Origin: Bacillota bacterium
GTDB taxonomy: Bacteria > Bacillota > Clostridia > Oscillospirales > CAG-272
Length of the DNA stretch: 51,140 nt
Assembly (NCBI GenBank): GCA_029219205.1
Contig: JAQXSY010000078.1
Span: 1-51,140 of the forward strand
Direction: 5' to 3'
Below the pieces are notes generated by a model. The model ran no database searches. It was not told where the DNA came from and saw only the letters and a program-made list of their open reading frames with translations. A program made the translations under genes and the position numbers. Below are positions 32,640 through 35,195 of the stretch, one piece after another (within the stretch, counting starts at the first letter, position 1; each line of letters starts with the position of its first letter).

Positions 32640-32927
32640 TTATCAACAAGTTTTCAACAGCTTTTCTCATATTTTTCATCATATTATTTTTTTGAAAATC
32701 TGCTTTTTAAAACTCAAATAAACCATCCGTCACGGCATCTGTCCACCGATATCCTACAAGTTTTCCACATTTGATCAACAACCTGTGGAAAACAGAACTG
32801 TTCTTATTTTTGATAATATTATTCAAGAAAAAACTTTGCATTTATTACTGTCATGCCGATTTTTTACTCAAACAAACAACCAGTTTTCAACAAGTTTTTC
32901 ACATGCTGTTGAAAACAGTTATTCACA
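32640..32927. promoter_or_regulatory. DnaA-box cluster between gyrB and gyrA
   Basis: TTATCAACA 32640, TTTTCAACA 32651 and 32884, TTTTCCACA 32761, TGTGGAAAA 32784, TTTTTCACA 32895, TGTTGAAAA 32907, TTATTCACA 32919. Confidence 0.8.
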
Positions 32928-32933
32928 TTTTTT

Positions 32934-34895
32934 TTAAAAATCGAGATCCTCGGCATATTTTGCGTTTTCCTCAATAAATTCACGTCTCGGATCGACCTTA
33001 TCGCCCATAAGAATGGAAAAAATTTCATCGCACTCCATAGCGTCGTGTATCGTCGCTCTTAGAATTGTTCTTGTATTCGGATCCATAGTAGTTTCCCAAA
33101 GCTGTTCCGGATTCATTTCGCCGAGACCTTTATATCTGTTAGTTATAACGCTGTCGGGATTATCGCCGCCAAGCTCTTTTACAAAAGCGTCTTTTTCCTC
33201 GTCAGAAAAAGCGTATCTGACATTTTTGCCTCTTGCAACTTTATAAAGAGGCGGCTGAGCAAAGTAGATGTGACCGTCCTCGATCAGCTTTTTCATATGA
33301 CGGTAGAAAAACGTCAGAAGAAGTATACGTATATGCGAACCGTCAACATCGGCATCTGCCATGATAATAATTTTTCCGTAGCGAAGCTTTTCAACATTGA
33401 AATCCGGACCTATTCCGCAGCCGATCGCCTGAATTATCGGAATCAGCGACGGATTTGCATATACCTTGTCGATACGGCTTTTTTCAACGTTCAGAACCTT
33501 TCCGCGCATGGGAAGTATAGCCTGATATTTGCTGTTTCTGCCGTCCTTTGCGGATCCTCCCGCGGAATTACCCTCGACCAGAAACAGCTCTGTGAGGTCC
33601 ATACGCTTTTCCTGACAGTCCCAAAGATTTCCTGGAAGAGACGTACCCTCAAGCGCTCCTTTACGGTTACGCGCAAGATCACGTGCCTGACGAGCCGCTT
33701 CATGCGCTCTCGCAGCGGAAATCGCCTTGTCCAGCACAAGTTTTGCGATCGAAGGATTCTCTTCAAAATATTCTCCAAGCTTTTCTCCGACGAGATTATC
33801 GACGAAAACGCGTATATCTGAGTTTCCGAGCTTTGCTTTTGTCTGCCCTTCAAACTGCGCGTCCTGAAGTTTAACGCTTACAACGGCGGTTAATCCTTCG
33901 CGTATGTCGTCTCCTGAAAGGTTTTTGTCGTTATCCTTTAAAAATCCGAGCTTGCGCGCATATTCGTTTATAACGCGCGTGATAGCCGTTTTAAAGCCTG
34001 TCTCATGCGTTCCTCCGTCAATGGTATGAATATTATTTGCGAAGGTCATGAGAGTGTCCTGATATGTGTCGTTGTACTGTATCGCAACTTCTGCGGTTGT
34101 GAAGCCTTTCTGAGCTTTCATATAGATTACATCATGCAGAATGGAGCAGTGTTTGATTGTATTCAGATGCTGAACAAACGAAATAATTCCGCCCTCATAA
34201 TGGAGCACGCTTACAGCCGGCTCAAGCTTTGTTCCGTCCGTATCAAAACGTTCGCGTTCGTCGCGTACGATAATTTTAACTCCGGCATTAAGAAACGCCT
34301 GCTCTCTCAAATGATTTACAAGCACGCCGTATTCGAAGACGGTTGTCTCAAAAATTTCCGGATCCGGCTTAAAGCGTACGTAAAGACCGCGTTTGTGCTC
34401 GCTTTCTTCCGTAACGTCTCCGATTTTTTTGAAAGGACGGTCAATTTTTCCGCGTTTAAAACTTCCGGTAAAAATTTCGCCGTCGAAAATATCTTCGTAT
34501 TCAAAGGTTTCCGAGAGCGCGTTAACGACCGATGCACCGACGCCGTGCAGACCTCCGGAAATATTGTAGCCGCCTCCGCCGAATTTTCCGCCCGCATGAA
34601 GAACGGTAAAAACAACTTCAGGCGTTGGAATACCCATTTTGTGATGGATTGCCGAAGGAATTCCGCGTCCGTTGTCTCGGACGGAAACAGATCCGTCGTT
34701 ATGAAGCGTAACCAGAATTTCCGAGCACTGTCCGGCGAGAGCTTCGTCTATCGAGTTGTCGACAATTTCGTAAACAAGGTGATGAAGACCGCGTTCGGAG
34801 GTTGACCCTATATACATGCCTGGTCTTTTTCTTACGGCTTCGAGACCTTCAAGCACTTGTATTTGGTTTTCGTCGTAAGTCTGATTGTTTTGCAT
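32934..34895 (-). CDS. gyrB: DNA gyrase subunit B
   Basis: [49 protein letters not shown]. Confidence 0.97.
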
Positions 34896-34910
34896 TTAAG
34901 TGGTCCTTTC

Positions 34911-35195
34911 TGTGGAAATGATCCGTATTTAAAACCCGGCTGTGGAAAATATTATTTTTTCCTTTGGCGCGGGGAGAATAAAAACATAGATAAGATAAGA
35001 ATATGTATAAACAAAAGTAATCGAAGTAAGGATTGTGGAAAATGTGGAAAACCGCTTGAAACAAGCCTGTCATGCAGTTTTGCCGGACAATAAAAACTAA
35101 AAATTAGCTGTGGAAAACGCAGTAAAAGCTGTTGCCGGAATCTGAAATCATAAATATGACATCCTGTGACAAGCCTGTGGAAAACTTGTGAGAAA
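34911..35195. promoter_or_regulatory. Putative oriC: DnaA boxes, DnaA-trio-like run and AT-rich tract
   Basis: TGTGGAAAA at 34941, 35034, 35043, 35109, 35176; near matches at 34911 and 35187; AT-rich tract about 34977-35020. Confidence 0.85.

Follow-up and report, generated by a model that had tools for sequence, protein, structure and literature searches.

The window analyzed here is the whole 51,140-bp contig C78 from the draft genome of an uncultured member of the class Clostridia from the gut (191 contigs, 2.30 Mb, 95.6% complete), and it contains the predicted chromosomal origin region of this organism. The sequencing runs in which sequence of this contig occurs are labelled as pig gut, feces and wastewater metagenomes. 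Along the minus strand the locus reads dnaN-recF-remB-dnaA-gyrB-gyrA, preceded by rhaA on the same strand, and candidate binding sites (boxes) for the initiator DnaA are concentrated in two of its gaps, one between dnaA and gyrB (cluster 1) and the other between gyrB and gyrA (cluster 2).

Counting as a box any 9-mer with at most one mismatch to TTWTNCACA, for which the genome rate is 2.5 per kb, we find nine boxes in both orientations in the 325-bp gyrB-gyrA gap, four of them exact, and eight in the 306-bp dnaA-gyrB gap, all in the direction of the genes and five of them the exact TTTTCCACA. One box in each gap is questionable: TTTTACTCA (32862) in the gyrB-gyrA gap is doubtful, and TTATACATA (35002) in the dnaA-gyrB gap lies inside an AT-rich tract and is probably there by chance. 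These counts agree with the initial annotation, which had noticed about eight or nine boxes in both orientations between gyrB and gyrA and about seven in a single orientation between dnaA and gyrB. Its remark that there are none upstream of dnaA or dnaN is also borne out, as the remB-dnaA gap holds one and the dnaN-upstream gap two, all of them unconvincing one-mismatch, low-complexity words without the CACA core; with about 0.5 boxes expected per gap, these numbers are roughly background. In the window as a whole, exact TTWTNCACA occurs 11 times compared with 3.9 ± 1.9 times in shuffled sequence (none of 100 shuffles reached 11), and nine of these 11 sites fall in the gyrB-gyrA and dnaA-gyrB gaps. 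The draft genome contains 45 copies of exact TTTTCCACA, seven of which lie inside the 631 bp of the two gaps. When 330-bp segments are ranked genome-wide by box density, the gyrB-gyrA gap comes first and the dnaA-gyrB gap second; the latter has the most exact boxes (five) of any 330-bp segment in the genome, and no segment outside the two gaps has more than one. A further box-rich stretch, C115:2312-2500 (seven boxes, one exact), was rejected as a cluster, being made up of simple repeats of the CTTTTCAC type where that contig ends.

In addition to its boxes, the dnaA-gyrB gap contains a candidate unwinding module, in which an abutting pair of perfect boxes is followed by a short spacer, an array of triplets resembling DnaA-trios, and an AT-rich, pyrimidine-rich tract closed by a GC clamp (Table 1). 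The distance from the first box to the first trio is 13 bp, made up of the 9-bp second box and the spacer, and the displayed triplets are the complement of DnaA-trios of the 3'-GAT-5' type; on the displayed strand, T is the central base in 15 of 19 triplets, and four of the first five fit the strict form of the trio. In its layout the series corresponds to the basal unwinding system (BUS). The published rules for BUS, as given in sections of PMC8287927, describe a box with at most two mismatches, often in a tandem pair, at most 16 bp before the first trio (13 being the commonest spacing), and a lenient array of at least three 3'-NAN-5' trios, while a stricter rule, from a portion of PMC7561715, asks for more than three contiguous 3'-[G/A]A[T/A]-5' triplets. 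With the box read as TTATCCACA, trios and unwinding element follow it in the 3' direction, the same polarity as that of R1 and the AT-rich 13-mers of Escherichia coli in the annotated K-12 oriC record. Directly after the trio array, positions 34977-35016 form the least stable stretch of the gap by nearest-neighbour free energy (dG; z = 3.0). Duplex stability was nevertheless discarded as a guide to the origin since it does not discriminate, with AT-rich minima in both gaps and several promoter regions of the window less stable still. Ranked by a simple measure of our own that combines second-box quality and triplet content, the module at 35051(-) scores 21, the highest of 245 exact-box anchors genome-wide (mean 3.6, standard deviation 3.9, next 14), and is also first among 5949 relaxed anchors (next 15).

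Table 1. Genes, gaps and sequence elements of the predicted origin region (window coordinates; ranges written high to low are read on the minus strand).
Feature	Position	Strand	Description
gyrA	30122-32608	-	828 amino acids, GTG start; NCBIfam NF004043 DNA gyrase subunit A, 1137 bits vs cut-off 902
gyrB-gyrA gap (cluster 2)	32609-32933		Plus-strand boxes 32640, 32651, 32761, 32884, 32895, 32919 and doubtful 32862; minus-strand boxes 32784, 32907
Tandem pair TTATCAACA-AG-TTTTCAACA	32640-32659	+	Directed toward gyrB, then AT-rich tract; weaker unwinding-module-like site
Least stable stretch of gyrB-gyrA gap	32661-32721		Nearest-neighbour dG z = 2.7-2.9; not unique in the window
Central module of cluster 2	32761-32792		TTTTCCACA, 3 bp, weak reverse box TGTTGATCA, 2 bp, TGTGGAAAA; the clade's 'triple-box' unit
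Box array beside gyrB	32884-32927		TTTTCAACA-AG-TTTTTCACA, TGTTGAAAA, TTATTCACA; repeat families D1, D3
gyrB	32934-34895	-	653 amino acids; NCBIfam NF004189, 937 bits vs 740; TIGR01059, 890 vs 882.4
dnaA-gyrB gap (cluster 1)	34896-35201	-	Boxes 34911, 34941, 35034, 35043, 35109, 35176, 35187; likely chance match 35002
GC clamp CCCCGCGCC	34974-34966		Closes the AT-rich tract
AT-rich, pyrimidine-rich tract	34975-35011		Predicted unwinding site
DnaA-trio-like array	35029-35012	-	TTA CTT CGA TTA CTT TTG
Spacer 'atcc'	35033-35030	-	Between box pair and trio-like array
Abutting box pair TTTTCCACA TTTTCCACA	35051-35034	-	Both match TTWTNCACA exactly, 0 bases between
dnaA	35202-36695	-	497 amino acids; NCBIfam TIGR00362, 464.5 bits vs cut-off 343.9
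remB-dnaA gap	36696-36884		No convincing DnaA boxes; repeat families D5, D2
remB	36885-37121	-	RemA-like small open reading frame, 78 amino acids; Pfam PF04025, 43.4 bits vs cut-off 26
recF	37136-38251	-	NCBIfam TIGR00611, 323.6 bits vs cut-off 172
dnaN	38223-39371	-	NCBIfam TIGR00663, 211 bits vs cut-off 137.65
dnaN-upstream gap	39372-39561		Promoter-like region and upstream terminator-like hairpin; no convincing boxes
rhaA	39562-40818	-

The module has counterparts in relatives, which we surveyed in two sets: 80 loci from public genome contigs (DnaA identity ≤50%) and 40 sampled relative genomes, with 29 dnaA loci of the same family or order. The dnaA-dnaN gap of relatives ends in an abutting box pair (for example in L016, L057, L059, L064 and L007), 3-4 nt, CTA/TTA/ATA triplets, a pyrimidine-rich tract that is the positional match to the AT-rich tract of the window, and a GCGCGC-type clamp (at the matching place in L016, L045, L056 and L064). 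The window's atcc TTA CTT CGA TTA CTT TTG can be set beside cccc CTA CTA CTA CGA CTA CTA in L057 and ccc TTA CTT CTA ATA CTA CTA in L028, and the CGA interruption is common to several relatives; the trio published for Clostridioides difficile, as shown in part of PMC7561715, is of a similar type. Among the 78 relatives with an anchor, 46 have their best-scoring site in the dnaA-dnaN gap, 43 of them on the strand of the genes, and another five, whose dnaN is off the locus, have it downstream of dnaA; it lies between recF and remB in eight, in the gyrB-gyrA interval in seven (box arrays, all with low scores), upstream of dnaA in six (again all low) and elsewhere in six. Exact-box density across the 80 loci is 5.87 per kb in the dnaA-dnaN gap, 4.67 in the first ≤700 bp downstream of gyrB, 1.20 in the recF-gyrB interval, 0.25 in the 600 bp upstream of dnaA and 0.11 inside the five genes.

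In the relative G041 the genes follow the ordinary order and both clusters are present. GC skew along its 276-kb contig is clearly V-shaped, and the cumulative minimum, at 162,177, falls inside the dnaA-dnaN gap (162,159-162,451), some 55-90 bp beyond the trio array; the gyrB-gyrA cluster of G041 is 4.8 kb away. Because the window's module is the counterpart of the dnaA-dnaN module of relatives, and because the skew minimum of G041 falls there, the predicted origin is still directly downstream of dnaA, as in relatives. The bipartite origin flanking gyrB that had initially been proposed is thus partly supported: two real box clusters do flank gyrB, but the predicted origin has not left dnaA.

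What has changed in this lineage is the order of the genes. In 73 of the 80 relatives dnaA is followed by dnaN, and the remaining seven loci end too early to tell; none of the 80 shows gyrB after dnaA. Similarly, dnaN comes directly after dnaA in 24 of the 29 same-family or same-order loci, and gyrB occupies that place in none of them. We found no contig from the same species or genus among the genome contigs (best DnaA identity 50%), the 40 sampled genomes, or metagenome contigs, where the best DnaA identity was 51% apart from a 1060-bp fragment at 72%. Since the genome is metagenome-assembled and its order is common to no relative, the order could in principle be an artefact of assembly or binning. 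We give this almost no credence, as sequencing runs yielded independent copies of the rearranged junctions in contigs from four studies: gyrA, the gap and gyrB are bridged by X1 record 1 (32426-33366), gyrB, the gap and dnaA by X1 record 3 (34404-35612) and X4 record 31 (34576-36796), and remB, recF and dnaN by X4 record 32 (36804-39700 and beyond), while X2 record 14 (36773-37150) and X3 record 21 (36054-36796) overlap inside the remB-dnaA gap. The rearranged order is real and lineage-specific. The X4 strain differs from the window at 32 positions over a 2.2-kb contig (~1.4%), including nine substitutions in the 306-bp dnaA-gyrB gap, of which none are in the five perfect boxes and two are in weak boxes (34915, 35192); as about 1.3 substitutions in perfect boxes would be expected by chance, the preservation of the boxes is suggestive only.

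In our reading the present arrangement arose when two adjacent blocks, [dnaA + origin] and [dnaN-recF-remB], exchanged places in this lineage, which brought gyrB next to the module; gyrB follows the module only because dnaN-recF-remB now lies upstream of dnaA. A decayed 47-nt copy of dnaA codons ~24-39 is found at 36809-36855, 83% identical to 36580-36626, 114 bp upstream of the dnaA start, with a stop ahead of it in the same frame. This copy is probably a scar left when the rearrangement brought dnaA behind remB.

The box-less region upstream of dnaA contains two perfect tandem 17-mers (36767-36800), each with the palindrome TTAACnnnGTTAA, which resemble the paired operators of a dimeric regulator. 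Near these repeats the contigs of several sequencing runs break. In a genome of the same family, G007, dnaA is immediately followed by a RemA-like match (L093, 2505-2675; 37% over 57 residues), with dnaN coming after it, a further small variation in the gene order of this cluster.

GC skew within the window is compatible with this location of the origin, not decisive for it; a 51-kb contig cannot show a whole-genome skew minimum. Cumulative G-C drops from -65 at 30.0 kb to -250 at 34.9 kb and is level up to 39.5 kb, a plateau that includes the lowest value, -275, at 37,981; beyond it the curve climbs, reaching -131 where the contig ends. Among the 18 contigs that measure 30 kb or more, C78 has the lowest mean absolute 5-kb skew (0.025), as expected of a contig straddling a switch, and per-gene total GC skew places a switch at 34.9-38.2 kb with a modest gain in fit. 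A switch far from the locus, which had been named at the outset as an observation that would speak against an origin here, does not appear within the 51 kb, where the minimum forms a plateau at 34.9-39.5 kb.

In cluster 2, three plus-strand pairs of the form 'weak box-AG-strong box' point toward the one pair of this kind in cluster 1, on the far side of gyrB, and with its nine boxes cluster 2 corresponds to what is expected of a titration site (at least three consensus boxes in a cluster that itself has no unwinding module). The pair nearest gyrA, at 32640-32659, scores 15 and ranks second among the 5949 relaxed anchors, a rank that it shares with two unrelated sites. An Rfam scan of 32300-39800, which covers both clusters, gave as its sole match a chance hit (E = 0.41) to an animal long non-coding RNA model.

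The initial annotation put forward either a new origin architecture spanning gyrB or DnaA control or titration tied to gyrA expression and supercoiling, and it took gyrB and gyrA to be normally close together. The assumed spacing does not hold in this group, and cluster 2 is not peculiar to this genome; the box conservation that had been proposed as a check is found in many relatives. Exact boxes downstream of gyrB number two or more in 29 of 52 loci and three or more in 20 of 52, many of these loci having the ordinary gene order; upstream of dnaA, only one of 76 loci reaches two. In the window's own family, eight of 23 genomes have at least two boxes downstream of gyrB, and the closest relative, G013, has six exact boxes in a 581-bp gyrB-gyrA gap. 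A unit in which a forward box is followed by two reverse boxes, with 3 bp between successive boxes, recurs downstream of gyrB (L016, L045, L070, L011, L005, L056, G004) and is also present inside the dnaA-dnaN cluster of L016, L045 and L057. In many relatives the gyrB-gyrA interval measures 1.7-2.5 kb and contains the cluster, then mreC (PF04085) and a second open reading frame of ~195 amino acids resembling a membrane protein, and then gyrA (the two genes lie between cluster and gyrA in L005, L011, L016, L025, L045, L049, L070 and G004); in L001, L002, L004, L056 and the window genome gyrA comes directly after the cluster. MreC was not found in the 95.6%-complete window genome by tblastn with the proteins of two relatives or by a Pfam family search. 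The cluster downstream of gyrB is older than the rearrangement seen in the window.

Two groups of relatives depart from this pattern. In a subgroup of eight (L027, L046, L050, L058, L066, L068, L072, L076) the dnaA-dnaN gap has no exact boxes and is only 40-152 bp long in four, and in the seven that have gyrA on the locus the gyrB-gyrA gap is 24-40 bp with at most one box; the whole box cluster, together with the module of boxes, trios, AT-rich tract and GC clamp, lies between recF and the RemA-like open reading frame (L058:10160-10700). The origin module thus seems to occupy different gaps in different lineages. In L003 a 309-amino-acid open reading frame (14353-15282) fills the ~1-kb gyrB-gyrA interval, so that its several consensus boxes are inside a reading frame and not in non-coding sequence, and similar reading frames lie downstream of gyrB in G002, G007 and G022. 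Judging by its N-terminal sequence, the protein of L003 may be sugar-kinase-like.

We consider the chances somewhat better than even that the two clusters divide the work of initiation, with cluster 1 as the site of unwinding and cluster 2 as an auxiliary DnaA platform that modulates initiation. DnaA would bind the abutting TTTTCCACA pair (35051-35034), the ATP-DnaA filament would extend from there over the trio-like array (35029-35012), and the filament would melt the AT-rich tract from ~35011 to 34975, up to the GC clamp. Cluster 2, as an auxiliary DnaA-binding platform of the origin region with no unwinding site, would most likely act by looping to the unwinding cluster or by titrating DnaA once it has been copied. 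In favor of a part in the origin, cluster 2 shares building blocks with the origin cluster, the clade is without the usual half upstream of dnaA, and the subgroup with its module between recF and remB has all of its boxes in that interval and none between gyrB and gyrA.

Several observations weigh against this explanation. The trio array is broken at its third triplet, giving a run of two, a break and another two, and so conforms to the lenient rule only, the strict rule of contiguity failing because CGA interrupts the run; the score by which the module was ranked is ad hoc. Skew within the 51-kb contig is weak, and third-codon GC skew per gene, which we had considered as support, was set aside because a model with no switch fits slightly better. 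From dnaA rightward (35202-50306) all 13 of 13 long open reading frames are on the minus strand and would be head-on to a rightward fork. Gene-strand bias was however rejected as a guide, being weak in this genome, where contigs of at least 15 kb mostly have 30-70% of their genes on one strand, and the head-on block therefore neither supports nor refutes an origin at this place. The cluster downstream of gyrB is patchy, being absent from 16 of 52 loci and reduced to at most one box in 23 of 52, and the relatives are kin, so that their counts are not independent. Where relatives have the ordinary order, ~5 kb separate it from the unwinding module, a distance greater, to our knowledge, than that between the clusters of any characterised bipartite origin. 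Lastly, mreC or gyrA always lies downstream of the cluster, a placement that would also fit a role in transcription alone. As a separate observation, the coding-strand GC skew of the 13-gene block is about -0.02, compared with 0.069 for majority-strand genes genome-wide.

Such a transcriptional role, in which cluster 2 is mainly an operator where DnaA represses or blocks transcription into gyrA and takes no part in initiation, is the main rival and strikes us as unlikely. In relatives it would affect transcription into mreC, the second open reading frame and gyrA, tying gyrase supply and supercoiling to the level of DnaA. Every inspected cluster does lie upstream of a co-directional next gene, mreC or gyrA; L001, L002 and L004 are left with only two facing boxes, which in L002 and L004 bracket a TGTTATAAT element ~40 bp before gyrA; and in the window a promoter-like site (32711-32683, minus strand) sits just upstream of the last two boxes, with no terminator-like site after gyrB in our scan. 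The same scan for promoters and terminators, on the other hand, yielded sites in no greater number than shuffled sequence does (12 sites vs 7.9 ± 3.0) and revealed no clear promoter for gyrB or gyrA, and the TGTTATAAT element is not conserved, its place in the window being taken by TGTTGATCA, which is better read as a weak box. Clusters of 8-12 boxes spread over 300-700 bp with AT-rich spacers far exceed what an operator needs, the gene downstream varies by lineage (mreC or gyrA), and the region upstream of dnaA has no boxes in this clade, so that transcriptional control through DnaA boxes is not prominent in it. More tentatively than the auxiliary-platform explanation itself, and with considerable doubt, we can extend it to many gut Clostridia, whose origins may be split, in a manner so far undescribed, such that the array downstream of gyrB replaces the missing half upstream of dnaA and loops over 2-5.5 kb to a portable module. 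That module would be located between dnaA and dnaN in most relatives, between recF and remB in one subgroup and between dnaA and gyrB here, making the window genome a natural short-loop variant whose halves are separated only by gyrB.

Readings that move the site of opening away from cluster 1 fare considerably worse. We regard it as very unlikely that unwinding takes place also, or instead, in the gyrB-gyrA gap, with the TTATCAACA-AG-TTTTCAACA pair as a second module facing the first across gyrB. This pair is the second-ranked unwinding-module-like site of the genome (score 15), its polarity from box to AT-rich tract is correct with 14 bp from the first box to the first T-centred triplet, and no part of the gap is less stable than the adjacent 32661-32700 (z = 2.7). 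The score is nonetheless tied with those of unrelated sites and thus not above background, any T-rich tract scores high by composition alone, and both boxes have a core mismatch; at the matching place the relatives that we inspected have a reverse-box pair and then another box, with no trios, and gyrB would be head-on to the fork. Slightly less probable still in our estimation is an active origin elsewhere, on another contig or in the unassembled 4%, the clusters being relics or purely regulatory. A 191-contig draft of 95.6% completeness, the weak skew of the contig and 15 kb of co-oriented genes lying head-on on one side would all be in keeping with this. It is difficult to reconcile with the absence of any other 330-bp segment with more than one exact box, with the fact that the only strong unwinding-module candidate is at this locus, with perfect boxes that are intact in the X4 strain despite nine substitutions in the gap, with a contig skew minimum that spans the locus, and with a homologous module that coincides with the skew switch of G041.

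The architecture of origins is known mostly from a few model bacteria, and in the Firmicutes models the split origin flanks dnaA. One widespread group of gut Clostridia, as yet uncultured, lacks the cluster upstream of dnaA, while a cluster downstream of gyrB recurs in it and the gap that contains the module varies by lineage. The compact arrangement of the window genome bears on how origin-prediction tools should handle genomes of this kind and on growth-rate estimates from metagenome coverage, which depend on correct origin positions. The compact 2.6-kb fragment at 32.6-35.2 kb offers a test bed for a distant box array as the second half of an origin, and if cluster 2 controls gyrA, the level of the initiator would be linked directly to gyrase supply. 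In our literature search no paper turned up in which DnaA boxes are located between gyrB and gyrA or regarded as belonging to an origin there, although DoriC and the supplementary tables of PMC8287927 (predicted unwinding modules for 2070 species) may list such origins.

The closest known counterparts are the bipartite origins of Bacillus subtilis and C. difficile, with oriC1 between rpmH and dnaA and oriC2 between dnaA and dnaN. As described in sections of PMC5295017, a bipartite origin has its functional elements distributed over two intergenic regions, each with a box cluster. The Bacillus and Helicobacter type further implies DnaA-mediated looping between the halves, both of which are needed for proper initiation. 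Boxes, a GC-flanked trio array and an AT-rich element are depicted for C. difficile oriC2 in parts of PMC7561715 and for B. subtilis in parts of PMC5295017, and cluster 1 of the window is alike. The window resembles both species in having two clusters in two intergenic regions about one gene apart and a predicted unwinding site in the cluster directly downstream of dnaA. It differs from them in that gyrB and not dnaA lies between the clusters, in the lack of a cluster upstream of dnaA in the window or its relatives (0.25 exact boxes per kb), in the location of its second cluster downstream instead of upstream of the unwinding cluster, and in the ~5 kb that separate the clusters in relatives with the ordinary order. 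Compared with the BUS of PMC8287927, as far as the relevant sections describe it, the window has the tandem pair with the better box upstream, the 13-bp spacer, the T-centred triplets and the AT-rich tract, but its boxes abut without intervening bases and its third triplet is CGA, as in several relatives.

Outside of oriC, E. coli has the DnaA-box cluster datA. B. subtilis has six origin-proximal clusters outside oriC, as reported in a section of PMC5295017 citing Okumura 2012. Cluster 2 resembles these in its dense consensus boxes near the origin without a convincing unwinding module, and by analogy it could titrate DnaA, being copied immediately after initiation; loss of a titration site would be expected to alter the timing of initiation. 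Unlike them, it is only 2 kb from the unwinding site (~5 kb in relatives), it has a fixed and conserved place in the dnaA-gyrA gene cluster, and it is built from the forward-reverse-reverse box unit. The oriC1-dnaA-oriC2 arrangement of Helicobacter pylori, as outlined in the abstract of PMC8235120, is likewise a split origin with one unwinding and one accessory half, although the gene flanked there is dnaA and both the phylum and the box consensus differ, a comparison that we make by description only. Taken together, the boxes, the unwinding module, the split origin and the box clusters are all of known kinds, and what is new is how they are arranged, that this arrangement is conserved within a group of gut Clostridia, and that the unwinding module appears to be portable from one gap to another.

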